DNA of 64,000 nt, taken from NCBI RefSeq assembly GCF_054482525.1, contig NZ_CM137006.1. One strand, written 5' to 3'. The translations under genes were made by a program, and so were the position numbers. The notes beneath the pieces were generated by a model. The model was not told where the DNA came from. It saw only the letters and a list, made by a program, of their open reading frames with translations, and did not search any database. Shown piece by piece: positions 5,427-28,230 of this stretch (position 1 is its first letter; each line of letters opens with the position of its first letter).

Positions 5427-7504
<2,078 letters not shown>

Positions 7505-7505
<1 letters not shown>

Positions 7506-8571
7506 TACAGCACTCCTTTCGACGAGGGCAGGGTGTCGCCTTCCACGCGGATGGCCTGGCGCAGGGTGCGACCAAAGGCTTTGAACAGGCTCTCTACACG
7601 GTGGTGATCGTTTTTACCTTTGGTTTTCAGGTGTAGCGTCACACCCATGGTGTAAGAGAGCGAACGGAAGAAGTGCTCGATCATTTCAGTGCTGAGATCG
7701 CCCACGCGCTGGTAGGTAAATTCAGCTTTATATTCCAGGTGCGGGCGACCAGAGATATCCAGTGCACAGCGGGCAAGGCATTCGTCCATCGGCAGCACAA
7801 AACCAAAGCGGCAAATACCGCGTTTGTCGCCAAGAGCAATTTTTAATGCTTCGCCCAGCGCCAGGCCGGTATCTTCGACGGTGTGGTGATCGTCGATATA
7901 GAGGTCGCCTTTAACGTTGATTTCCATCCGGAAACCGCCGTGGGTGGCGATCTGATCCAGCATGTGATCAAAGAATCCAACGCCGGTATTAATCTTGCTG
8001 CCACCTTCACGATCCAGCCACACCTGGACGTCAATTTGCGTCTCTTTGGTGTTGCGCACTACATGGGCGTAACGGTCTCGTTTAGTGAGTTGCTCGCCAA
8101 TCATTGGCCAGTTCAGGGTTTCGCGGTCGTAGCGTAAACCATTAATACCCATGTTTTCAGCCAGTTGAATATCGGTCGCGCGATCGCCAATCACATAACT
8201 GTTGGCGCGATCCATCGCTTGCTCAGCGAGATAACGCTCCACCAGTTTTACTTTCGGCTTACGGCAGTCGCACTCATCGGCGGGCAGGTGCGGACAAATC
8301 AGCACTTCATCAAACTGCACGCCTTGTGAGGTGAAGATCTGCATCATCAGGTTGTGCGGGCCATCGAAATCCGCCTGCGGGAAACTTTGTGTTCCCAGAC
8401 CATCCTGATTAGTGATCATCACCAGCTTGTAGCCCGCTTTTTGCAGCTTCAGCAGCTCCGGGATCACGCCAGGTTCAAAGGCGAGTTTGTCAAAACGGTC
8501 CACCTGAAAATCACTCGGCGGTTCGCTGATCAGGGTTCCATCGCGATCGATAAAAAGATACTTCTGACTCA

Positions 8572-8572
<1 letters not shown>
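7505..8572 (-). CDS. hisB: Bifunctional histidinol-phosphatase / imidazoleglycerol-phosphate dehydratase
   Basis: ORF 7505..8575; start [15 protein letters not shown] (HAD phosphatase DxDGT motif) gives 355 aa. Confidence 0.95.
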
Positions 8573-10943
<2,371 letters not shown>

Positions 10944-10948
10944 GGCGA

Positions 10949-11848
10949 TCACTCCATCATCTTCTCAATCGGCAGGACCAGGATTGAACTGGCACCCAGC
11001 GCTTTCAGTTTTTCCATCGTTTCCCAGAACAGGGTTTCGCTACTGACCATGTGCATCGCTACGCGTTGTTGGTCACCCGCCAGCGGCAGAATGGTTGGGC
11101 GTTCGGCACCTGGCAGCAGGGCGATGACTTCATCCAGGCGTTCGGTCGGTGCGTGCATCATGATGTATTTTGATTCGCGCGCCTGGATAACACCCTGAAT
11201 ACGGGTCAGCAGTTTGTCGATCAGTTGCTGTTTGGATACTTCCATTTCGCCATCGCGCTGGATCAGGCAGGCTTTCGAGCGGTAGATAACTTCGACTTCG
11301 CGCAGGCCGTTAGCTTCCAGCGTGGCACCGGTGGAAACCAGATCACAAATCGCATCTGCCAGTCCGGCACGCGGGGCGACTTCGACAGAACCGTTCAGTA
11401 AGCAGGATTTAAAAGAGATGCCTTTCTGGTCGAGATAACGCTTGAGCAGGTGAGGATAAGAGGTGGCGATACGTTTACCGTTTAAGGAGAGTGGGCCATC
11501 CCAGGCTTCATCAACCGGCGTTGCCAGCGAAAGACGGCAACCGCCGAAATCCAGACGACGCAGGGTAAAGTAGCGCGGATCTTCACCCTGGGCGCGGCGG
11601 TTAAGCAGCTCTTCTTCCAGCACGTTTTCGCCGATAATCCCGAGGTCAACCACGCCGTCCATTACCAGACCGGGAATGTCGTCATCACGTACGCGCAGAA
11701 TATCAATCGGCATGTTTTCTGCCATCGCGATCAGGCGCTGGGTGTGAAGATTGATTTTAATGCCACAGCGCGCCAGCAATTCGCGTGAGTCATCACTTAA
11801 ACGGCCTGATTTCTGCATAGCTATGCGTAAACGAGTGTTGTCTGTCAT
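10949..11848 (-). CDS. hisG: ATP phosphoribosyltransferase
   Basis: ORF 10949..11887; start [21 protein letters not shown] gives 299 aa (long-form HisG). Confidence 0.95.
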
Positions 11849-11893
11849 TTTCTTATTCCTCTTTAAACCTGTCTGAACCGTTATCAACCGCGC

Positions 11894-11930
11894 AATAAAA
11901 AAGCCCCCGGAAGATGATCTTCCGGGGGCT
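11894..11930 (-). terminator. his operon attenuator (terminator hairpin between hisL and hisG)
   Basis: On the - strand: agcccccggaagatcatcttccgggggct perfect hairpin followed by a T run, located between hisL stop and hisG start. Confidence 0.85.
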
Positions 11931-11993
11931 TACTCATGCGTTCATGCACCACTGGAAGATCTGAATGTCTTCCAGCACACATCGCCTGAAAGA

Positions 11994-12044
11994 CTAGTCA
12001 GGATGATGGTGATGATGGTGGTGTTTAAATTGAACGCGTGTCAT
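11994..12044 (-). CDS. hisL: his operon leader peptide (MTRVQFKHHHHHHHPD)
   Basis: Reverse complement of 11994..12044 reads atg aca cgc gtt caa ttt aaa cac cac cat cat cac cat cat cct gac tag: 16 codons with seven consecutive His codons. Confidence 0.92.
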   Translation of the reverse strand: MTRVQFKHHHHHHHPD

Positions 12045-12327
12045 AAAAGTCTCTGTGAATGTTTATTCAACTGATGTCTTTTAACCTAAACCACTTTCAC
12101 GTTAGAAAGCAAGGGCTTTTTTATATATTTTATGGCGATGGATTTGTTTAATGAATGAGCGGGGAAAGGAGGGGGCTAAGAGGACTGACCTCTAAGCTGA
12201 CGGCACCAAAAATAGCGAAGCCTGGATTTTTCGACTCACTGACAATATCTTGATCTACAAACTAATTAATAAATAGTTAATTAACGCCCATCATTGTACA
12301 ATGAAATGTACAAAAGAGGAGATTAAC

Positions 12328-12579
12328 ATGCGTACAATTAGCTACAGCGAAGCGCGTCAGAATTTGTCGGCAACAATGATGAAAGCCGTTGATGATCATG
12401 CCCCGATCCTTATTACTCGTCAGAATGGAGAGGCTTGTGTTCTGATGTCACTCGAAGAATACAACTCCCTGGAGGAGACGGCTTATCTACTGCGTTCCCC
12501 CGCTAACGCCCGGAGATTGATGGACTCAATCGATAGCCTGAAATCTGGCAAAGGAACGGAAAAGGACATCATTGAGTGA
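12328..12579 (+). CDS. yefM: Type II antitoxin YefM
   Basis: ORF 12301..12579; start [21 protein letters not shown] gives 83 aa; stop overlaps the GTG start of yoeB (GTGA). Confidence 0.9.
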
Positions 12580-12830
12580 AACTAATCTGGTCTGAGGAAT
12601 CATGGGATGATTATCTGTACTGGCAGGAAACAGATAAGCGAATTGTTAAAAAGATCAATGAACTTATCAAAGATACCCGCAGAACGCCATTTGAAGGTAA
12701 GGGGAAGCCAGAACCCCTGAAACATAATTTGTCAGGTTTCTGGTCCCGACGCATTACAGAGGAGCACCGTCTGGTATACGCGGTTACCGACGATTCACTG
12801 CTCATTGCAGCATGTCGTTATCATTATTGA
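12576..12830 (+). CDS. yoeB: Type II toxin YoeB (ribosome-dependent mRNA interferase)
   Basis: 84-aa [25 protein letters not shown]...; GTG start overlapping the yefM stop. Confidence 0.9.
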
Positions 12831-12912
12831 ACAGATTCATTCATAGAATGAATTGTCAGTTTTGATACGCTAGCGTAGCCTTATAGATCTAAGGTGTATC
12901 AGGAGATAACGG

Positions 12913-13737
12913 ATGAAAAAGGTCGCAATTGTCGGGTTAGGGTGGTTAGGCATGCCGCTGGCGATGTCACTTTCAGCGCGAGGCTGGCAAGTCACCGGGA
13001 GTAAAACCACACAAGATGGTGTCGAAGCGGCCCGAATGAGTGGCATTGATAGCTATCTGCTTCGCATGGAGCCTGAGTTAGTTTGCGATTCTGACGATCT
13101 GGATGCCCTGATGGATGCCGATGCGCTGGTCATTACGCTTCCGGCACGTCGTAGCGGCCCCGGCGATGAGTTCTATTTACAAGCGGTACAAGAGTTAGTG
13201 GATAGCGCGCTGGCCCATCGTATTCCCCGCATTATTTTTACCAGCTCAACATCTGTCTATGGCGACGCGCAAGGCACGGTGAAAGAAACCACCCCGCGTA
13301 ATCCGGTAACCAACAGTGGACGAGTATTAGAAGAACTCGAAGACTGGCTGCACAATTTACCCGGTACTTCGGTCGATATTCTGCGTCTTGCGGGCCTGGT
13401 CGGACCGGGGCGTCATCCCGGACGCTTCTTTGCCGGAAAAACCGCGCCTGATGGTGAACATGGTGTTAATTTAGTCCATTTAGAAGATGTTATTGGCGCT
13501 ATCACCCTGTTGTTACAGGCACCTAAAGGCGGACACATCTATAATATATGTGCGCCAGCTCACCCTGCGCGTAATGTTTTCTATCCGCAGATGGCCCGTT
13601 TACTGGGGCTGGAACCTCCGCAGTTCACAAATAGTCTGGACAGCGGCAAAGGTAAGATTATTGATGGCAGTCGGATTTGTAATGAACTGGGATTTGAATA
13701 CCAGTATCCCGATCCGCTGGTAATGCCGCTGGAGTAA
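12913..13737 (+). CDS. yeeZ: NAD(P)-dependent epimerase/dehydratase family protein
   Basis: 274-aa ORF with N-terminal Rossmann motif VAIVGLGWLG; synteny with yeeY and yoeB. Confidence 0.85.
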   Translation: MKKVAIVGLGWLGMPLAMSLSARGWQVTGSKTTQDGVEAARMSGIDSYLLRMEPELVCDSDDLDALMDADALVITLPARRSGPGDEFYLQAVQELVDSALAHRIPRIIFTSSTSVYGDAQGTVKETTPRNPVTNSGRVLEELEDWLHNLPGTSVDILRLAGLVGPGRHPGRFFAGKTAPDGEHGVNLVHLEDVIGAITLLLQAPKGGHIYNICAPAHPARNVFYPQMARLLGLEPPQFTNSLDSGKGKIIDGSRICNELGFEYQYPDPLVMPLE

Positions 13738-13782
13738 ACGATCACGCCAGCAGGACGCCGCATACACTGCAAGGGGGCGTGT

Positions 13783-14712
13783 ATGAAACCACTGCTGGAT
13801 GTGTTGATGATCCTCGATGCCTTAGAAAAAGAAGGCAGTTTTGCGGCGGCGTCGGCCAAACTCTACAAGACGCCGTCCGCTCTGAGTTACACCGTTCACA
13901 AGCTGGAAAGCGACCTTAATATTCAATTGCTTGATCGTAGCGGACACCGCGCTAAATTCACCCGCACCGGGAAAATGTTATTAGAGAAAGGGCGGGAAGT
14001 TCTGCATACCGTGCGAGAACTGGAAAAGCAGGCGATCAAACTGCATGAAGGCTGGGAAAACGAGCTGGTGATTGGTGTGGACGACACCTTCCCTTTTTCT
14101 CTGCTTGCGCCACTCATTGAAGCTTTTTATCAACATCATAGTGTGACGCGCCTGAAGTTTATCAATGGTGTACTCGGTGGCTCCTGGGATGCCCTGACTC
14201 AGGGGCGAGCGGATATTATTGTTGGCGCGATGCATGAGCCACCATCTTCCAGTGAGTTTGGTTTCTCGCGGTTAGGCGATCTGGAACAAGTCTTTGCGGT
14301 CGCGCCACATCATCCGTTAGCCCTGGAAGAAGAACCGTTAAACCGTCGTATCATTAAACGATATCGGGCGATTGTGGTGGGGGATACTGCGCAGGCAGGC
14401 GCTTCTACGGCCTCACAACTTCTCGACGAACAAGAAGCCATTACCGTTTTCGATTTTAAAACCAAGCTGGAGCTGCAAATTAGCGGCCTTGGCTGCGGCT
14501 ATTTACCCCGTTATCTGGCGCAACGTTTTCTCGATAGTGGCGCGTTAATCGAGAAGAAAGTGGTCGCCCAAACTCTCTTTGAACCCGTCTGGATTGGCTG
14601 GAACGAACAGACCGCAGGGCTTGCCAGCGGCTGGTGGCGTGATGAAATTTTAGCAAATAGTGCGATCGCCGGTGTTTATGCAAAATCTGATGACGGAAAA
14701 TCAGCCATTTAA
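13783..14712 (+). CDS. yeeY: LysR-family transcriptional regulator
   Basis: 309-aa ORF; N-terminal wHTH (SFAAASAKLYKTPSALSYTVHKLE) and LysR substrate-binding domain. Confidence 0.85.
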   Translation: MKPLLDVLMILDALEKEGSFAAASAKLYKTPSALSYTVHKLESDLNIQLLDRSGHRAKFTRTGKMLLEKGREVLHTVRELEKQAIKLHEGWENELVIGVDDTFPFSLLAPLIEAFYQHHSVTRLKFINGVLGGSWDALTQGRADIIVGAMHEPPSSSEFGFSRLGDLEQVFAVAPHHPLALEEEPLNRRIIKRYRAIVVGDTAQAGASTASQLLDEQEAITVFDFKTKLELQISGLGCGYLPRYLAQRFLDSGALIEKKVVAQTLFEPVWIGWNEQTAGLASGWWRDEILANSAIAGVYAKSDDGKSAI

Positions 14713-14978
14713 AGAAAAATTATTATGACAAGCCTCTCATTCTCTTGTCATTTCCCCCCCATTTAGGCACAATGCGCCGCTGTCAAAAAATGACTAAAAA
14801 CCGACGTTTAATTAGCGTCGGTTATTTTTTGCTTCAAACCAATCATTCATACCAAGAGGCCGGGCTTCGTACCGGATAGATATTTACTAAAAATCGACAG
14901 TTGTTGTCGCTGAGGAATCCAAAAAAATGGGGCAATTTTTTGCTTACGCGACGGTTATCACCGTAAAGGAGAATGACC

Positions 14979-16337
14979 ATGTCGCATAACGTTACTCCAA
15001 ACACCTCTCGCGTGGAATTGCGTAAAACGCTTACGTTAGTTCCGGTTGTAATGATGGGTCTTGCCTATATGCAGCCGATGACGCTGTTTGATACATTTGG
15101 TATCGTTTCAGGCCTCACGGATGGTCATGTGCCGACAGCCTATGCGTTCGCATTGATTGCGATCCTGTTTACGGCTCTGAGCTACGGGAAGCTGGTTCGC
15201 CGCTATCCTTCTGCTGGCTCTGCATACACTTACGCCCAGAAATCCATTAGCCCGACTGTCGGCTTTATGGTGGGTTGGTCTTCTCTGCTCGACTATCTGT
15301 TCGCGCCGATGATCAACATTCTACTGGCGAAAATCTATTTTGAAGCTCTGGTGCCTTCCATTCCATCGTGGATGTTTGTGGTGGCGCTGGTGGCCTTTAT
15401 GACCGCCTTTAACCTGCGTAGTCTGAAATCCGTAGCGAACTTCAACACTGTAATCGTCGTGTTGCAGGTAGTGCTGATCGCGGTGATTCTGGGCATGGTT
15501 GTTTATGGCGTATTTGAAGGCGAAGGCGCGGGTACGCTGGCGAGCACTCGTCCGTTCTGGTCTGGCGATGCGCATGTTATCCCGATGATTACCGGGGCGA
15601 CAATCCTGTGCTTCTCCTTTACCGGCTTTGACGGCATCAGCAACCTGTCGGAAGAAACCAAAGATGCAGAGCGCGTGATCCCGCGTGCGATTTTCCTGAC
15701 CGCGCTGATCGGCGGCATGATCTTCATCTTTGCAACTTACTTCCTGCAGCTGTACTTCCCGGATATCTCTCGCTTTAAAGATCCGGATGCGTCACAGCCT
15801 GAAATCATGCTGTATGTTGCGGGTAAAGCGTTCCAGGTTGGCGCGCTGATCTTCTCCACCATTACCGTACTGGCGTCCGGTATGGCGGCGCACGCAGGCG
15901 TAGCGCGTCTGATGTACGTAATGGGTCGTGACGGCGTATTCCCGAAAAGCTTCTTCGGTTATGTACACCCGAAATGGCGTACTCCGGCGATGAACATCAT
16001 CCTGGTTGGCGCGATTGCCTTGCTGGCAATCAACTTCGACCTGGTAATGGCTACGGCGCTGATTAACTTTGGTGCGCTGGTGGCGTTCACCTTTGTTAAC
16101 CTGTCGGTTATCTCGCAGTTCTGGATCCGTGAGAAGCGTAATAAGACGCTGAAAGATCACTTCCAGTATCTGTTCCTGCCGATGTGTGGTGCGCTGACTG
16201 TAGGTGCGCTGTGGGTTAATCTGGAAGAAAGCTCAATGGTTCTGGGTCTGATCTGGGCTGCTATTGGTCTGATTTACCTGGCTTGCGTCACCAAGAGCTT
16301 CCGTAACCCGGTTCCGCAGTACGAAGACGTTGCATAA
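14979..16337 (+). CDS. plaP: Putrescine importer (APC-superfamily amino acid/polyamine permease)
   Basis: ORF 14973..16337; start [16 protein letters not shown] gives 452 aa; 12-TM permease. Confidence 0.87.
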
Positions 16338-16370
16338 TCTTACAAGCCGGATGACATAATCATCCGGTAA

Positions 16371-16408
16371 ATCTCAAAAAGCCGGAGTTTGTCGCTCCGG
16401 TTTTTTTG
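16371..16408. terminator. Bidirectional terminator between convergent plaP and sbcB
   Basis: Hairpin gccggagtttgtcgctccgg followed by T7; a second hairpin ccggatgacataatcatccgg lies at 16346..16366. Only 74 bp separate plaP and sbcB. Confidence 0.7.
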
Positions 16409-16410
16409 TT

Positions 16411-17838
16411 TCAGACGATCTCTTCCGCGTACTGCCAAAGTGCTTTTAACAGCGCCACTTTCTCTTTGTCATCGGCATATTGTTGTGCCAGCATCTGCAA
16501 TTCATCTGCATAGCCCTGCAAAAACTCTGGCGTGAAGACCTGGCGGCGGTGCTCCAGCCAGCGTTGCTGCTCGGCATAATCCAGCGTCCCCGGGAAGTTG
16601 CGCGCCCGATAATTGAACAACAGCTTTTCAATCCGTTTATCAACAAAAGTGATATCCAGTGCCGGTAAATTACGCGGCTCGGTTTCCAGCACAATTTTCA
16701 TTGCTGCACGATCGGCGTCACTGAAAAAGCCATTATAAAGCTGTGCATCCACGTTATCTGAAGGCGTAAACGGTTCGGCTTCCGCGAATATCGCCACCAC
16801 TTTTTCACGCACTTGCGGATTTTCACGCAGAATTTTCAGGTTATCGAGGCAATGCTGACGATTAATTCCCAGTCGGTCGGCATCTTCCGGGCGTAGCGTA
16901 TTCGCCTGGGCCAGCACCGGACATTTATTGATATGCACCAGTTTAACCGGAACGGCGGCGTTATCGCCAAGATCGGCTTTTGCGGTATATAGACGCTCGC
17001 GCAATGTGTCGCTATCCAGTTCCAGTAATGGCGAAATGTCTCCTGCCAAATCCACCATAATTACGGCATTGCGATTTTCAGGATGCCACGCCAGCGGTGC
17101 CACCCAGCTTGTATTGCCGCGCCATGCCCCAAACATTCCGGAAACGTGAACCAGGGGTTTCATCTGCGGAACATCAATCAACGCCATCAGTTTGTGTTTA
17201 TTACGATGGGTAAAGAGATAATCAAACAGGCGTGGCTGACGCGTTTTTACCAGTTTTGCCATCGCAATAGTGGCGTACACATCAGCCATCGCATCGTGGG
17301 CGTTGCTATGTTCAATACCATTCGCTTTGGTTAAATGCTCAAGGCGAAAGCTCGGTAGACCGTCATCATTTTCAGGCCAGTTTATTCCTTCCGGGCGCAG
17401 GGCATAGCAGGCACGCATAACATCCAGTAAATCCCAGCGCGAGTTATCATGCTGCCAGCTCCAGGCGTAAGGATCGTAGAAATTACGATAAAAAACGTTG
17501 CGTGTGACTTCGTCGTCGAAACGCACATTGTTGTAGCCCAGAATACAGGTCTTCGGTACGGTAAAAAGCGAGTGAATACGGGCGGCAAATGCGGCTTCGT
17601 TTTCTCCTTTCGCCCGAGCTTCCTGCGGGGTAATACCGGTAATTAATACTGCTCCAGGCTGGGGTAAATAGTCATCCGCGGGCTTGCAGTAAAAGACTTC
17701 GGGTTCGCCGATGACATTGAATTCGTCATCGGTGCGAATGGCTGCGAACTGTGCAGGGCGATCTAACGCGGGGTGCGTGCCAAAGGTTTCGTAATCGTGA
17801 AACAAAAAGGTAGATTGTTGCTTACCGTCATTCATCAT
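16411..17838 (-). CDS. sbcB: Exodeoxyribonuclease I
   Basis: ORF 16411..17886; start MMNDGKQQSTFLFHDYETFG (DEDDh exonuclease motif) gives 475 aa. Confidence 0.94.
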   Translation of the reverse strand: MMNDGKQQSTFLFHDYETFGTHPALDRPAQFAAIRTDDEFNVIGEPEVFYCKPADDYLPQPGAVLITGITPQEARAKGENEAAFAARIHSLFTVPKTCILGYNNVRFDDEVTRNVFYRNFYDPYAWSWQHDNSRWDLLDVMRACYALRPEGINWPENDDGLPSFRLEHLTKANGIEHSNAHDAMADVYATIAMAKLVKTRQPRLFDYLFTHRNKHKLMALIDVPQMKPLVHVSGMFGAWRGNTSWVAPLAWHPENRNAVIMVDLAGDISPLLELDSDTLRERLYTAKADLGDNAAVPVKLVHINKCPVLAQANTLRPEDADRLGINRQHCLDNLKILRENPQVREKVVAIFAEAEPFTPSDNVDAQLYNGFFSDADRAAMKIVLETEPRNLPALDITFVDKRIEKLLFNYRARNFPGTLDYAEQQRWLEHRRQVFTPEFLQGYADELQMLAQQYADDKEKVALLKALWQYAEEIV

Positions 17839-20001: not shown

Positions 20002-21060
20002 GTGCGTGCCGATAAGTCATTAAGCCCGTTTGAAATCCGGGTATACCGCCATTACCGCATTGTGCATGGTACTCGGGTCGCGCTGGCATTCCTGCTCACT
20101 TTTCTCATTATCCGCCTGTTTACTATCCCGGAAAGCACCTGGCCGCTGGTCACCATGGTGGTGATTATGGGGCCAATCTCGTTCTGGGGGAACGTTGTCC
20201 CTCGTGCCTTCGAACGTATTGGCGGTACGGTGTTGGGGTCGATTTTAGGTCTTATCGCTCTGCAACTGGAGTTAATCTCGTTACCGCTGATGTTAGTCTG
20301 GTGCGCGGCGGCCATGTTCCTTTGCGGTTGGCTGGCGCTGGGCAAGAAACCGTATCAAGGTTTATTGATTGGGGTGACGCTGGCAATTGTTGTGGGTTCC
20401 CCGACAGGTGAAATTGATACGGCGTTATGGCGAAGCGGCGATGTGATCCTCGGCTCTTTACTGGCAATGTTGTTTACCGGTATCTGGCCACAACGGGCGT
20501 TCATCCACTGGCGCATTCAACTGGCAAAAAGTCTGACCGAGTATAATCGGGTCTATCAATCTGCATTCTCACCGAACTTGCTCGAACGCCCGCGTCTGGA
20601 AAGCCATCTACAAAAACTCCTGACCGATGCCGTGAAAATGCGTGGGCTGATTGCGCCCGCCAGCAAAGAAACTCGTATTCCAAAATCGATATATGAAGGT
20701 ATCCAGACCATTAACCGCAATCTGGTTTGTATGCTGGAGTTGCAAATCAATGCATACTGGGCCACGCGCCCCAGCCATTTCGTGTTATTGAACGCGCAAA
20801 AACTTCGTGATACCCAGCACATGATGCAGCAAATACTGCTGAGCCTTGTTCATGCGCTGTACGAAGGTAATCCGCAGCCGGTTTTTGCCAATACGGAAAA
20901 ATTGAACGATGCTGTGGAAGAGCTGCGTCAGTTGCTGAATAACCACCATGACCTGAAGGTTGTGGAAACACCAATCTATGGTTATGTGTGGCTGAACATG
21001 GAAACGGCACATCAGCTTGAGTTGCTATCGAGTCTGATTTGCCGGGCCTTGCGCAAATAA
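20002..21060 (+). CDS. yeeA: Inner membrane protein, FUSC-like family
   Basis: 352-aa ORF with several N-terminal TM helices; synteny between sbmC and yeeX. Confidence 0.8.
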   Translation: MRADKSLSPFEIRVYRHYRIVHGTRVALAFLLTFLIIRLFTIPESTWPLVTMVVIMGPISFWGNVVPRAFERIGGTVLGSILGLIALQLELISLPLMLVWCAAAMFLCGWLALGKKPYQGLLIGVTLAIVVGSPTGEIDTALWRSGDVILGSLLAMLFTGIWPQRAFIHWRIQLAKSLTEYNRVYQSAFSPNLLERPRLESHLQKLLTDAVKMRGLIAPASKETRIPKSIYEGIQTINRNLVCMLELQINAYWATRPSHFVLLNAQKLRDTQHMMQQILLSLVHALYEGNPQPVFANTEKLNDAVEELRQLLNNHHDLKVVETPIYGYVWLNMETAHQLELLSSLICRALRK

Positions 21061-21231
21061 TTCCTGAACTTCAGAATCATCTTGCTGCTGCTTCGATTCA
21101 GCAAGGATAAAGGGTATGATAGTGATAAGGGATAAAAGCATTGTCATCTGCGGCAGCTATGAGTAATGTTGGCCCTAACGAATAGCGGTTGCTTAAACGA
21201 ATCCGACTCTCACATTATCAGGGGTATAAAA

Positions 21232-21561
21232 ATGGAAACTACCAAGCCTTCATTCCAGGACGTACTGGAATTTGTTCGTCTGTTCCGTCGTAAGAACAAA
21301 CTGCAACGTGAAATTCAGGACGTTGAGAAAAAGATCCGTGACAACCAGAAGCGCGTCCTGCTGCTGGACAACCTGAGCGATTACATCAAGCCGGGGATGA
21401 GCGTTGAAGCAATCCAGGGCATCATCGCCAGCATGAAAGGTGACTATGAAGATCGTGTTGACGATTACATCATCAAAAATGCCGAGCTCTCCAAAGAACG
21501 CCGCGATATCTCCAAAAAGCTGAAAGCTATGGGCGAAATGAAAAACGGCGAAGCGAAGTAA
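21232..21561 (+). CDS. yeeX: UPF0265/DUF496 family protein
   Basis: ORF 21166..21561; start [30 protein letters not shown] gives 109 aa; terminator hairpin gagggttgcccggcaaccctc follows. Confidence 0.82.
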
Positions 21562-21661
21562 TTCCTGTTTTATTCAATGAGGGTTGCCCGGCAACCCTCA
21601 TTGCTCATTGATTCTTTTCTGTGTATCACCGTCATCATTCCCATCTGATAACCTATTGAAA

Positions 21662-21934
21662 TTAGCGACAGCCTTCTTCTGTATGCAGCAAGGCAAAAAG
21701 TTCTGCAACTCCATTGTTATTAACCGCACTGGTTACTAACACATTGTGCGCTCCAGCTTCCCGTAACCAACTTTTCACCAAAGATATTTGTTCCATGCTG
21801 GCTAAATCTGCTTTGGTGACTACTCCAATAACAGGGCGATTCATTGACGAGGTAAAGCCTGGCGAAAAAGGGGACCACGGTGTGTCCGCATTAAGCACCA
21901 GGGCGATAATGTCTGCTTCGCAGGCGCTGACCAA
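21662..21934 (-). pseudogene. yoeF: Truncated EutP/PduV-family GTPase remnant (yoeF-like); probable relic of a lost pdu operon
   Basis: 90-aa ORF ...[41 protein letters not shown]... corresponds to the C-terminal two thirds of EutP/PduV proteins; the N-terminal P-loop is missing. Confidence 0.55.
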
Positions 21935-22429
21935 CAGAGCACTGTAGAGGCTGCGGTTTTATCTGTGAGGACTGGCAGCAAGATTTCCAGCCTCTTGACG
22001 GTGGGCCTGTGCAATCGTTATCAGATGCGTATAGCGATTATTCAGTGCTGCTATTGATAGCAGCTGAAAGCGAGATATCCGTACCAGAATGGCTCCCTCA
22101 TTCTGAGGGAACGACGGTAATTGTGATTGCAGAACACAATGCCCGTTTGCTGACTGGTCCGGCTGGTGGGGCTGTGGCATTGATCCATTATCTGAATGAA
22201 ATCTGTCATTCCAGAGAAACCGCTGTCAATGACGCATTTTGTCGGACGTTAACACGAGGAAGTCTGGCTATTCCGCAATGCCATCTTCTTTCGTAATGGA
22301 TTGAGAATGCTGGATTTTTAATTATATTACGCGCAGTATTAATCGCGTAAATGTTTTGCGGTCAGCAACGGTGGGGGATCCATTGTTCTGTTCAATGAAT
22401 ACCATCATACAATTGAATCAGGAGTCGGT

Positions 22430-22975
22430 ATGATGATTTTGGTGACGGGGGGCGCACGGAGCGGGAAAAGTCGCCACGCAGAGGCGCTTATTGGGGACTC
22501 TTCACAGGTTCTGTATATCGCCACCTCGCAAATCCTTGATGATGAGATGGCTGCACGGATAGAACATCATCGGCAAGGCCGCCCGGCGCACTGGCGCACG
22601 GTGGAGCGCTGGCAACATCTTGATGAATTAATTCATGCAGACATTAACCCGAATGAGGCTGTGTTGCTGGAATGCGTTACCACAATGGTGACTAATCTGT
22701 TGTTTGATTATGGCGGCGATAAAGACCCTGATGAATGGGATTATCAGGCGATGGAACAGGCGATTAATGCTGAGATTCAGTCGTTGATTGCTGCCTGCCA
22801 ACGTTGCCCCGCAAAGGTTGTATTAGTGACTAACGAAGTGGGAATGGGGATTGTGCCGGAGAGTCGTCTGGCACGACATTTTCGTGATATTGCCGGGCGG
22901 GTAAATCAGCAGTTGGCCGCTGCGGCAAATGAAGTATGGCTGGTGGTTTCGGGTATTGGAGTAAAAATCAAATGA
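22430..22975 (+). CDS. cobU: Adenosylcobinamide kinase / adenosylcobinamide-phosphate guanylyltransferase
   Basis: 181-aa ORF with P-loop GGARSGKS. Confidence 0.94.
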
Positions 22976-23715
22976 GTAAATTATTTTGGGCGATGCTCTC
23001 ATTTATTACGCGTCTGCCTGTACCGCGTCGCTGGTCCCAGGGACTGGATTTCGAGCATTATTCTCGCGGTATTATTACTTTTCCTTTGATTGGATTATTG
23101 CTTGGCGCGATTAGCGGGCTGGTCTTCATGGTGCTGCAGGCATGGTGTGGCGTACCACTGGCGGCACTGTTTAGCGTACTTGTGCTGGCGCTGATGACCG
23201 GGGGATTCCATCTGGACGGCCTCGCTGATACCTGTGATGGCGTATTTTCTGCACGTAGCCGCGATCGCATGTTGGAAATCATGCGTGATAGCCGTTTAGG
23301 CACCCACGGCGGTCTGGCATTGATTTTTGTGGTACTGGCAAAGATTCTGGTGTTAAGCGAGTTGGCTCTGCGTGGCGAACCGATCCTTGCATCGCTGGCG
23401 GCAGCATGTGCGGTCAGCCGCGGGACTGCCGCATTATTGATGTATCGTCATCGTTATGCGCGGGAAGAAGGGCTTGGCAATGTGTTCATTGGCAAAATTG
23501 ATGGGCGACAAACCTGCGTCACACTCGGCTTAGCCGCTATTTTTGCTGCCGTATTATTGCCGGGTATGCATGGTGTGGCTGCTATGGTGGTGACGATGGT
23601 GGTGATTTTCATCCTCGGTCAGCTTCTCAAACGTACGCTGGGCGGGCAAACGGGCGATACGCTGGGTGCAGCCATAGAGCTTGGTGAACTGGTCTTCCTG
23701 CTGGCACTGCTATAA
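22972..23715 (+). CDS. cobS: Adenosylcobinamide-GDP ribazoletransferase (cobalamin synthase)
   Basis: ORF 22936..23715; start [11 protein letters not shown] overlaps the cobU stop (ATGA); 247 aa, polytopic membrane protein. Confidence 0.93.
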
Positions 23716-23726
23716 AGAGACGTGAC

Positions 23727-24806
23727 ATGCAAATACTTGCCGATTTACTGAATACGATCCCAGCCATCGATCCTGCCGCTATGTCGCGTGCACAACGGCA
23801 TATTGACGGGTTACTCAAACCTGTTGGTAGCCTGGGAAAGCTGGAGGCGCTTGCCATACAACTGGCAGGAATGCCGGGGTTGAATGGCATACCGCATGTG
23901 GGCAAAAAAGCGATACTGGTTATGTGTGCCGATCACGGCGTCTGGGAGGAAGGGGTCGCTATTTCTCCAAAAGAAGTGACAGCCATACAGGCTGAAAATA
24001 TGACCCGCGGAACAACCGGCGTGTGTGTGCTGGCAGCACAAGCGGGCGCTAACGTCCACGTAATTGATGTTGGTATTGATACTGCTGAGCCTATCCCCGG
24101 GCTTATCAACATGCGTGTCGCACGAGGTAGCAGCAATATTGCTTCAGCTCCGGCAATGAGTCGCCGTCAGGCTGAAAAGTTGCTTTTGGACGTCATATGT
24201 TATACGCGGGAGCTGGCAAAAAACGGTGTCACGCTGTTTGGTGTAGGTGAACTGGGGATGGCAAACACGACACCGGCAGCGGCAATAGTCAGCACAATCA
24301 CTGGCCGGGATCCTGAAGAAGTGGTTGGGATTGGCGCAAACCTGCCGACAGATAAACTGGCTAATAAAATTGATGTTGTGCGTCGGGCGATTACGTTGAA
24401 TCAACCAAATCCTCGGGATGGTGTTGATGTCCTGGCAAAAGTGGGTGGATTTGATTTGGTCGGAATAGCTGGAGTGATGTTAGGTGCTGCTTCCTGCGGT
24501 TTACCCGTGTTGCTGGATGGATTTCTTTCTTATGCTGCTGCGCTCGCAGCCTGCCAGATGTCTCCTGCAATCAAACCGTATCTCATTCCTTCTCACTTGT
24601 CGGCAGAAAAAGGCGCGCGTATAGCGCTGTCGCATTTGGGGCTGGAGCCTTATCTCAATATGGATATGCGTTTAGGTGAGGGGAGTGGTGCAGCTCTGGC
24701 GATGCCCATCATCGAAGCTGCTTGTGCGATATACAACAATATGGGCGAACTTGCTGCCAGTAATATTGTTCTACCGGGGAATACGACTTCTGATTTGAAC
24801 AGCTAA
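23727..24806 (+). CDS. cobT: Nicotinate-nucleotide--dimethylbenzimidazole phosphoribosyltransferase
   Basis: 359-aa [43 protein letters not shown]... Confidence 0.94.
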
Positions 24807-25858: not shown

Positions 25859-25934
25859 TGGCTCCTCTGACTGGACTCGAACCAGTGACATACGGATTAA
25901 CAGTCCGCCGTTCTACCGACTGAACTACAGAGGA
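25859..25934 (-). tRNA. asnV: tRNA-Asn (GUU)
   Basis: Reverse complement reads TCCTCTGTAGTTCAGTCGGTAGAACGGCGGACTGTTAATCCGTATGTCACTGGTTCGAGTCCAGTCAGAGGAGCCA (76 nt, anticodon GTT). The asnV name is assigned from synteny next to ldtA/nac. Confidence 0.95.
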
Positions 25935-26260
25935 ATCGTGTGAACGGGGCGCATATTAATGGCAGTGCATGGTGATGTCAAAGGGTGAAATGCATTTTTT
26001 TGTTTGTTTGCTGTCAATTTCAACAAAGTGGTGAGCTTTCAATCTTATTGGGTAATGAACCATCGTGGTGCATACCCTCCTTTTATAGGGCAGGGGAACG
26101 CGACAGCTGATAAAAAGAGCCAATGACGAATCTATCATAATCTCTTATTTGACAGTTGGTTAGCTTGTACATCAACGCCAAAATAAAACTGGCAAGCATC
26201 TTGCAATCTGGTTGTAAGTAATGGCGGCACTTGGGCCGATTCTTATAAACCGGAGGCAAC

Positions 26261-27178
26261 ATGAACTTCAGACGCCTGAAATACTTCGTAAAAATTGTAG
26301 ATATTGGTAGCCTGACCCAGGCTGCTGAAGTATTGCATATCGCACAACCAGCGCTCAGTCAGCAGGTTGCCACACTGGAAGGTGAGTTAAATCAACAACT
26401 TTTGATTCGCACAAAACGGGGCGTTACGCCAACTGACGCCGGAAAAATTCTCTATACCCATGCGCGGGCCATTTTACGTCAGTGTGAGCAGGCCCAACTG
26501 GCGGTGCATAACGTTGGTCAGGCATTATCGGGGCAAGTCTCGATTGGCTTTGCACCAGGAACCGCTGCGTCATCCATCACCATGCCCTTATTACAGGCGG
26601 TTCGCGCTGAATTTCCGGAGGTCGTTATCTATCTTCATGAAAATAGCGGTGCAGTGCTTAACGAAAAACTGATAAATCACCAACTCGATATGGCGGTGAT
26701 TTATGAGCATTCCCCTGTGGCTGGTGTATCCAGTCAGGCTTTACTGAAAGAAGATCTTTTTCTGGTAGGAACTCAAGATTGCCCGGGGCAAAGCGTTGAT
26801 GTTAATGCTATCGCGCAAATGAACCTCTTTCTCCCCAGTGATTACAGTGCTGTTAGACTTCGTGTTGATGAGGCTTTTTCCCTACGGCGACTCACGGCAA
26901 AAGTCATTGGTGAAATTGAGTCTATTGCCACGCTTACCGCAGCGATTGCCAGCGGCATGGGCGTTGCAGTATTACCCGAATCGGCCGCGCGTTCGTTATG
27001 TGGCGCAGTAAACGGATGGATGTCACGCATTACCACACCTTCCATGAGTCTCTCTTTGTCATTAAATTTACCCGCCAGAGCGAACTTATCACCACAGGCG
27101 CAAGCAGTGAAAGAGTTGTTAATGTCAGTGATGAGTTCTCCAGTGATGGAAAAAAGGCAGTGGCAATTGGTGAGCTAA
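26261..27178 (+). CDS. nac: Nitrogen assimilation control protein (LysR family)
   Basis: 305-aa ORF MNFRRLKYFVKIVDIGSLTQAAEVLHIAQPALSQQV... Confidence 0.92.
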   Translation: MNFRRLKYFVKIVDIGSLTQAAEVLHIAQPALSQQVATLEGELNQQLLIRTKRGVTPTDAGKILYTHARAILRQCEQAQLAVHNVGQALSGQVSIGFAPGTAASSITMPLLQAVRAEFPEVVIYLHENSGAVLNEKLINHQLDMAVIYEHSPVAGVSSQALLKEDLFLVGTQDCPGQSVDVNAIAQMNLFLPSDYSAVRLRVDEAFSLRRLTAKVIGEIESIATLTAAIASGMGVAVLPESAARSLCGAVNGWMSRITTPSMSLSLSLNLPARANLSPQAQAVKELLMSVMSSPVMEKRQWQLVS

Positions 27179-27279
27179 GCATTATATCGGGATGGAATAA
27201 GATGCGGGTTTTTATTATTTGTTATGCCGGGCATTAGACTTTAACAATAACGGGAAATCTGAACTGCCCGGAGTTTACC

Positions 27280-28230
27280 GTGAATTTCCAACAACTAAAG
27301 ATAATCCGCGAGGCTGCACGTCAGGATTACAACCTGACAGAGGTTGCGAATATGCTTTTTACCTCACAGTCCGGCGTCAGCCGTCATATTCGGGAACTGG
27401 AGGATGAACTTGGCATCGAAATATTTGTTCGACGAGGTAAGCGACTGCTGGGCATGACTGAACCGGGCAAAGCATTACTGGTCATTGCAGAACGTATTCT
27501 GAATGAAGCCAGTAATGTTCGTCGGCTTGCAGACCTGTTTACCAACGATACGTCTGGCGTTCTCACTATTGCAACGACGCATACTCAGGCACGTTATAGC
27601 TTGCCTGAGGTCATTAAAGCTTTTCGCGAACTTTTCCCGGAGGTTCGGCTGGAGCTAATCCAGGGTACACCACAGGAAATTGCGACGTTGTTGCAAAATG
27701 GCGAAGCTGATATTGGTATCGCCAGCGAGCGTTTAAGTAATGACCCGCAGCTCGTCGCCTTCCCGTGGTTTCGTTGGCACCATAGTTTGCTTGTTCCACT
27801 CGATCATCCCTTGACGCAAATTACACCGTTGACGCTGGAATCAATAGCGAAGTGGCCGTTAATTACTTACCGACAGGGAATTACGGGGCGCTCACGTATT
27901 GATGACGCATTTGTCCGCAAAGGTTTGCTGGCAGATATTGTATTAAGTGCGCAGGATTCTGATGTCATTAAAACCTATGTTGCTCTTGGGCTGGGGATTG
28001 GATTAGTTGCCGAACAATCCAGCGGCGAACAAGAGGAAGAGAATTTAATCCGTCTGGATACGCGGCATCTTTTCGATGCCAATACTGTATGGTTGGGACT
28101 GAAGCGAGGGCAACTTCAACGTAACTATGTCTGGCGCTTTCTGGAACTTTGTAATGCAGGACTGTCAGTTGAGGATATCAAGCGCCAGGTGATGGAGAAC
28201 AGTGAAGAGGAAATTGATTATCAGATATAG
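27280..28230 (+). CDS. cbl: LysR-family regulator of the sulfonate-sulfur utilization regulon
   Basis: 316-aa ORF MNFQQLKIIREAARQDYNLTEVANMLFTSQSGVSRHIRELE... Confidence 0.92.
   Translation: MNFQQLKIIREAARQDYNLTEVANMLFTSQSGVSRHIRELEDELGIEIFVRRGKRLLGMTEPGKALLVIAERILNEASNVRRLADLFTNDTSGVLTIATTHTQARYSLPEVIKAFRELFPEVRLELIQGTPQEIATLLQNGEADIGIASERLSNDPQLVAFPWFRWHHSLLVPLDHPLTQITPLTLESIAKWPLITYRQGITGRSRIDDAFVRKGLLADIVLSAQDSDVIKTYVALGLGIGLVAEQSSGEQEEENLIRLDTRHLFDANTVWLGLKRGQLQRNYVWRFLELCNAGLSVEDIKRQVMENSEEEIDYQI

Follow-up and report, generated by a model that had tools for sequence, protein, structure and literature searches.

A probable deletion scar between tmaR and cobU

In the 64-kb stretch of E. 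coli DNA analysed here (hereafter the window), the region between tmaR and cobU (21662-22429) is very probably the scar of one 17,254-bp deletion in a pdu+ E. coli ancestor. It holds the 3' end of pduV (pduV') on the minus strand and, on the plus strand, the remainder of a short frame derived from the 5' end of cbiG (cbiG'). These two gene ends, together with colinearity with the pdu+ E. coli strain A28, confirm the proposal of the initial annotation that a relic of the pdu/cbi region lies between yeeX and cobU. The canine isolate E. coli strain 1190 shows 100% identity to the window over the 868-bp interval compared, and its annotation matches the window coordinates base for base.

The left flank is an intact tmaR (yeeX; 21232-21561, plus strand; Pfam DUF496, E 2e-45), annotated as tmaR at the same coordinates in strain 1190. 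Further upstream lies yeeA (20002-21060, plus strand), and a 16-codon ORF between the two (21116-21166, plus strand) occupies the exact position of the K-12 small-protein gene yoeJ and is unannotated in strain 1190. Between the convergent tmaR and pduV', a 29-nt hairpin (CAATGAGGGTTGCC…GCAACCCTCATTG, 21575-21603) can be read directly from the sequence and appears as an inverted self-match in blastn; it was not called in a scan for consensus terminators and is likely a bidirectional terminator. The relic pduV' (21662-21958, minus strand) comprises codons 50-147 and the stop of pduV, as identified by PF10662, TIGR02528, and DNA identity to A28. It runs into the deletion junction GTTTT (21956-21960), placed by colinearity with A28, beyond which cbiG' (21961-22296, plus strand) corresponds to codons 34-145 and the stop of a cbiG-derived 145-codon ORF, recognized by A28 identity, NCBIfam NF004463, and tblastn. 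A 133-bp spacer (22297-22429, plus strand), in which a promoter scan placed a candidate promoter, leads to an intact cobU (22430-22975, plus strand; Pfam CobU E 2e-64, and annotation), followed by cobS, cobT, and ldtA; cobUST is intact.

In A28, the order is tmaR, then pduV, pduU, pduT to pduB, and pduA on the minus strand, followed by pduF, pocR, a cobalamin riboswitch, a 145-aa "hypothetical protein", cobU, cobS, and cobT. Window positions 21400-21960 align to 6337-6897 of the A28 locus (L004) at 96.3% identity, which extends through the 3' part of the full-length A28 pduV up to L004 6897, and positions 21956-22600 align to L004 24147-24791 at 97.7% identity, with the cbiG' relic matching from L004 24147 onward. 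From the difference in offset across the junction, the window is the A28 arrangement minus 17,254 bp, a figure reconstructed with A28 as a stand-in for the parent haplotype. GTTTT is found at both parental breakpoints and forms the microhomology at 21956-21960. Immediately to the right, the window reads ATCTGT where A28 has GTTGGT, and three of these six nucleotides match neither parental flank. The join at the microhomology thus comes with a few changes that it does not explain, and its breakpoint is approximate. Strain UTME-3 has the same junction in a haplotype 96.8% identical to the window.

The ancestral arrangement would have been tmaR, pduV-pduU-…-pduA on the minus strand, and pduF-pocR-riboswitch-short ORF-cbiG'-cobU-cobS-cobT, with the cbi genes already reduced before the deletion to the 145-codon ORF from the 5' end of cbiG. 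The deletion would then have run from pduV codon 49/50 to cbiG' codon 32/33, joined at GTTTT. It would have removed pduA-pduU, 49 pduV codons, pduF, pocR, the riboswitch, and 32 codons from the start of the 145-codon ORF, leaving behind the last 98 pduV codons on the minus strand and the last 112 cbiG' codons on the plus strand. The deletion allele is an ordinary E. coli polymorphism, known in kind and already annotated by PGAP, which lists pduV' as a pseudogene with a "missing N-terminus". The E. coli chromosome is well known to vary at this site, and for the window itself the deletion scar matters little.

Other features were noted elsewhere in the window. The gene plaP (14979-16337) is directly followed by sbcB (16411-17838), and tsuA/tsuB (yeeE/yeeD), located between these genes in K-12 and strain A28, are absent from the window. 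Three tRNA-Asn genes lie within 25859-30166, the last of which (30091-30166) adjoins an island (30091-40514) containing a tyrosine integrase (30328-31590), phage-integrase and HTH fragments, an RHS core protein (35728-39909), and a TPR protein.

The pduV relic

The minus-strand ORF (21662-21934, with an open frame extending to 21958) had been described as a truncated EutP/PduV-like, yoeF-like ORF, and this description holds. Pfam PF10662 (PduV-EutP) matches the frame with an E-value of 2.2e-24 and 86 bits (cutoff 21), though only from model position 59 to 142 of 143, and TIGR02528 matches with an E-value of 1.9e-27 and 96 bits, which is under its full-length cutoff of 138 bits. In a translation alignment, the frame corresponds to residues 50-147 of the 147-aa PduV of A28. 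Residues 1-49 are missing, including the start codon and the P-loop (GPSQCGKT, residues 8-15 of the full-length A28 PduV), and an in-frame stop precedes the frame. Thus, pduV' matches the EutP/PduV family HMM but is a gene fragment and not a member protein.

PduU and PduV had both been proposed as queries for this interval; similarity was found for the 3' part of pduV, whereas no pduU remnant is present, because the deletion endpoint falls within pduV. No other pdu genes occur in 21662-22430, and pduV' lies outside any pdu or eut operon, while A28, E. albertii, E. marmotae, and Escherichia sp. E4736 have the pdu operon at the orthologous site.

Function of the relics and transcription of cobUST

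Both relics are probably non-functional in the window, judging by their missing parts and by further decay in other strains. It is quite improbable that 21961-22296 is still expressed as a functional small protein in window-type strains, even though the frame is open and called by PGAP, its full-length parent has a dN/dS of 0.27-0.43 and is open across Escherichia species, and a GGTGGG directly precedes the GTG at 22009. The frame has lost its ATG and 32 codons, together with the upstream ORF coupled to it, the leader with the riboswitch, and the promoter region on the pocR side. In K-12 the same relic has shrunk to ~48 codons and carries an internal stop, and in strain Z0117EC0040 it is down to ~18 codons, with no sign of consequence. 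In addition, window-type haplotypes differ from each other by seven nonsynonymous vs. three synonymous codons, small counts that fit relaxed constraint.

A search with Rfam RF00174 at E ≤ 1 yielded no match in window positions 21100-22600, whereas the aptamer scores 107.8 bits in A28 and 105-113 bits across A28, E. albertii, E. marmotae, Escherichia sp. E4736, and a more distant lineage (GCA_023277125.1, L011). Since the leader is lost, transcription of cobUST must start in or near 22297-22429, and the operon would now be transcribed from one or more promoters in or near this 133-bp spacer, without control by the B12 riboswitch. The spacer is conserved among Escherichia (p = 0.09-0.13), and the promoter scan identified a sigma-70-like TTGAGA-16-TATATT at 22301-22328, a weak prediction with one site found vs. 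1.5 expected, which makes it a candidate cobUST promoter. Lawrence and Roth (1995, J Bacteriol) reportedly described several promoters for K-12 cobUST. Riboswitch control of the cobinamide salvage genes would thus have been lost in window-type as well as K-12-type strains.

Origin of the frame upstream of cobU

The plus-strand frame 22009-22296 reported by the initial annotation is present; it begins there at the first GTG and is open from 21961. In strain 1190, PGAP lists 21961-22296 as a protein-coding "hypothetical protein" (WP_032159232.1) with an ATC start and 111 codons. The initial annotation considered the frame a possible decayed 3' end of cbiP, left next to cobU after the loss of the cbi operon. 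Our comparisons do not bear this out and instead make the frame the 3' part of the cbiG-derived 145-codon ORF.

Several searches point to CbiG. The intact 145-aa A28 ortholog matches model positions 1-125 of 351 of NCBIfam NF004463 (CbiG) with an E-value of 1.6e-19 and 70 bits, and the 95 aa of the window frame give an E-value of 0.021 and 14 bits. The ORF, which has 145 aa in pdu+ strains but 111 in the window, stays below the curated cutoff of this model (546 bits), which applies to a full CbiG of ~350 aa with middle and C-terminal domains. Fourteen Cbi proteins (CbiD to CbiP) from a metagenomic operon were used as tblastn queries against the window, A28, and L011. CbiG alone gave significant matches (residues 1-119 vs. 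A28, E 2e-17; residues 34-119 vs. the window, E 3e-4), and CbiP and the other 12 gave chance matches only. A profile built from 13 Escherichia versions of cbiG' and searched against 1.84 billion representative proteins retrieved 35 matches in total, consisting of fragments and genuine full-length CbiG, among them a 358-aa CbiG (P0054; E 6e-15) with CbiG_N, mid, and C domains, encoded in a cbiD…cbiP operon. The relationship is exposed only by NCBIfam and the custom profile, not by Pfam, where neither the 95-aa frame nor the intact 145-aa ortholog matched any family, CbiG_N included, even at an E-value of 5. A PDB sequence search with the ORF profile returned only chance matches to gp41 (E > 0.1).

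In the intact Escherichia ORF, the first 14 residues are near-identical to those of real CbiG N-termini (MNTVKPESIALFCL vs. MKTIKPESIALFCL). In contrast, motifs conserved in six genuine CbiG N-termini (GATG..VR..AP, DPAVVVIDE, and SLLSGHxGGAN), whose conservation suggests functional importance, are lost in the Escherichia ORFs, which have AAESEISV…PE, TTVILI, and RLLTGPAGGAV at these positions and a deletion of 7-8 residues. Comparing the A28 riboswitch-to-cobU region with a complete operon (GCA_014763265.1, L016) by blastn and tblastx gave three anchors only: the leader, the start of cbiG (from ~27 nt upstream of the gene), and the last ~40 nt before cobU, starting 28-43 nt before cobU. The latter, which is the sole part of the spacer to align, corresponds to the cbiP-cobU junction region of L016. 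For the ~190 nt in between (roughly 22213-22390), sensitive blastn and tblastx searches found no match to this operon; the tail of the cbiG' ORF may be further diverged cbiG.

Although cbiP lies immediately upstream of cobU in complete operons such as L016, and the ~190 nt without a match could hide an unrecognizable fragment of cbiP or another cbi gene, it is highly improbable that the frame is the decayed 3' end of cbiP. With the complete 518-aa CbiP as the tblastn query, the best E-values against the window, A28, and L011 were 1.9-3.0, and none of these matches was in the right frame or position beside cobU. The frame has no Pfam GATase_3 or CbiA domain, it is colinear with CbiG residues 34-119 or beyond, and the blastn and tblastx comparison with L016 places it at the start of cbiG, with no match to cbiP. 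The assignment to cbiP is thereby largely refuted for 21961-22212. By sequence comparison, the frame descends from the 5' end of cbiG and not from cbiP, which corrects the proposed origin of the DNA upstream of cobU.

A possible translated leader in pdu+ Escherichia

Outside the window, the parental form of this region has a feature of its own. The cbiG' ORF (L004 24050-24487, with orthologs in the Escherichia loci L006, L008, and L009) is open and 144-145 codons long in all 12 full-length Escherichia cluster representatives; a 13th row of the alignment, 143 aa long, is incomplete at the N-terminus and diverges at the C-terminus. Its pairwise dN/dS is 0.27-0.43, vs. 0.02-0.14 for pocR, pduF, cobS, and cobU, and its rate of change (p 0.15-0.21) exceeds that of the non-coding spacer leading to cobU (0.09-0.13). 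In a neutral simulation at a distance of 0.4, an ORF of this kind stayed free of stop codons in 1.4% of the runs.

Directly upstream, and downstream of the riboswitch, a second ORF of 44 codons is found (23919-24053 in A28 (L004); 5870-6004 in L006, L008, and L009). By alignment, it starts at the inferred cbiA start (AAAGGA-N7-ATGGCGGCA), and it ends in an ATGA that overlaps the cbiG' ATG. This ORF is open in four Escherichia species, with equal length and no indels. In L011 (7871-8020), the upstream ORF has 49 codons and overlaps cbiG' by 20 nt, the same overlap as between cbiF and cbiG in a real operon. The upstream ORF therefore looks like an in-frame cbiA'-'cbiF fusion that may have been retained for translational coupling.

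In E. coli, E. albertii, E. marmotae, and Escherichia sp. E4736, both frames remain open at constant length and spacing, an arrangement also found in a second genus-level lineage. Their amino acids meanwhile evolve fast, which would fit selection for continued translation. We thus tentatively suggest, as one possibility that is less probable than its alternatives taken together, that the cbi operon of pdu+ Escherichia was trimmed to a translated leader in which the B12 riboswitch still controls the original cbiA start. Continued translation would fit a role in riboswitch-gated coupling or in shielding cobUST from Rho polarity; alternatively, the fragment of the CbiG N-domain could have taken on a new role. 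The window holds only the decapitated remainder of this arrangement: the start codon of cbiG' is gone, and with it the upstream ORF, the riboswitch, and the promoter region on the pocR side.

Distribution and age of the pdu+ arrangement

Among 5,426 complete E. coli genomes, about 645 have the pdu+ arrangement with riboswitch and ORF and 201 the contiguous window-type form, and most of the remaining genomes keep only the equivalent of 22125-22429, beside an island. E. albertii, E. marmotae, and Escherichia sp. E4736 share the synteny of pdu with pduF-pocR-riboswitch-cbiG'-cobUST-ldtA, and the pdu+ arrangement without cbi genes is therefore older than E. coli. By this synteny, the Escherichia ancestor already lacked the cbi genes and possessed pdu, and the window is a later derivative. 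In the more distant lineage L011, whose pocR and pduF are only 75%-80% identical, pocR and the riboswitch are likewise accompanied by a cbiG' of 156 aa, at an unchanged spacing of 218 nt.

Variants of the downstream genes were also observed. The L011 region 8471-16471 has no cobUST, with ldtA directly following cbiG' and then a glycyl-radical (cutC/cutD-like) microcompartment cluster. In the E. albertii contig of GCA_024394735.1 (L006 6435-7877), cbiG' and cobS have no called cobU between them, and there is no cobT ahead of ldtA, which suggests decay of the cobinamide salvage operon in this lineage.

Previous work described the site as conserved, occupied by pdu in some strains (27 of 327) and by variable alternative gene sets in others, with a poor fit of pdu presence to the E. 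coli tree (retention index 0.26; PMC7577506). In canine ST372, gain and loss of pdu was reported and the pattern was read as multiple acquisitions (PMC9997745). Although the low retention index and the ST372 study could be taken to favour a contiguous tmaR-cobU as the original E. coli state, into which pdu or CP4-44 was later inserted by horizontal transfer, this is almost certainly wrong: two genes that are whole in pdu+ strains are present in the window as truncated halves, which an insertion cannot create, three other Escherichia species have the pdu+ arrangement in synteny, and repeated independent losses at different breakpoints explain the patchiness. Under the deletion origin, the patchy occurrence of pdu in Crohn's-associated and canine E. 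coli would largely be explained by repeated independent deletions or replacements with different breakpoints, and most pdu-negative alleles therefore need no separate acquisition. Re-import of pdu by homologous recombination through the conserved flanks is possible in individual lineages and does not conflict with a deletion origin.

Comparison with K-12 and the Salmonella-type operon

Different losses at this site are seen in other strains. In strain WB61, pduV extends 55 nt past the window junction before it meets a CP4-44-like island, and Z0117EC0040 lacks the equivalent of 21839-22242, so that its cbiG' relic is almost wholly deleted. K-12 and most E. coli would represent a different derived state, with a CP4-44-type island replacing 21845-22124. 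Alignment with K-12, the comparison proposed at the outset, shows the expected pattern of shared flanks (21000-21844 and 22125-23000) with the island between them in place of 21845-22124. The order from cobU to tmaR in K-12 is IS5H, yoeG/H, yoeA (interrupted by IS2F), yeeP, isrC, flu, yeeRST, cbeA/cbtA, yeeW, yoeD, and yoeF, with IS5H and CP4-44 forming a block of 12.7 kb (2066020-2078748). The statement that K-12 has an IS element and the CP4-44 prophage between cobU and yoeF, two genes that are contiguous here, was thus correct, with cobU ~470 bp past pduV' in the window. The absence of CP4-44 from the window was confirmed as well, as the K-12 block (2066061-2078748) gave no megablast match to any part of the 64 kb.

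The K-12 gene yoeF (b4538), which adjoins tmaR/yeeX and of which we found no mention in the literature searched, has the same locus and gene of origin as pduV': K-12 is 97.6% identical over window positions 21000-21844, and the C-terminal sequence of PduV is the same at the end of YoeF. However, in yoeF the last ~58-61 PduV codons are fused to the end of CP4-44, resulting in a chimeric 118-aa ORF, whereas the window retains 98 PduV codons whose partner is cbiG' and not a prophage. On the other side of the island, the N-terminally incomplete "cobalamin biosynthesis protein" pseudogene that PGAP annotates beside IS5 upstream of cobU in K-12-type strains is the same cbiG' relic. Its identity to window positions 22125-22429 is ~92%, lower than in the flanking cobU. 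The K-12 copy (L005 3766-4075) has ~48 codons, is interrupted by an internal stop, and lacks 9 nt relative to the window, in keeping with decay that followed truncation, while the window copy is open over 112 codons. Derivation of the window form from the K-12 form was considered and rejected, as the window retains more of both relics than K-12.

The description of the interval as remnants of a Salmonella-like pdu/cbi region stands as far as the relic is concerned, but the Escherichia pdu operon ends at pduV, and no pduW or pduX of the Salmonella type precedes tmaR. In the Salmonella-type supra-operon of L016, a divergent pdu operon is followed by pduF and pocR, the B12 riboswitch leader, the cbi genes, and cobU. 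Escherichia has the same order and orientation, and its leader, cbiG start, and cobU start align to those of L016. It differs from this type in lacking cbiA-cbiP, of which the first few codons of cbiA, a few 3' codons of cbiF, and about 120-145 codons of cbiG survive, and the window has lost everything but two gene ends.
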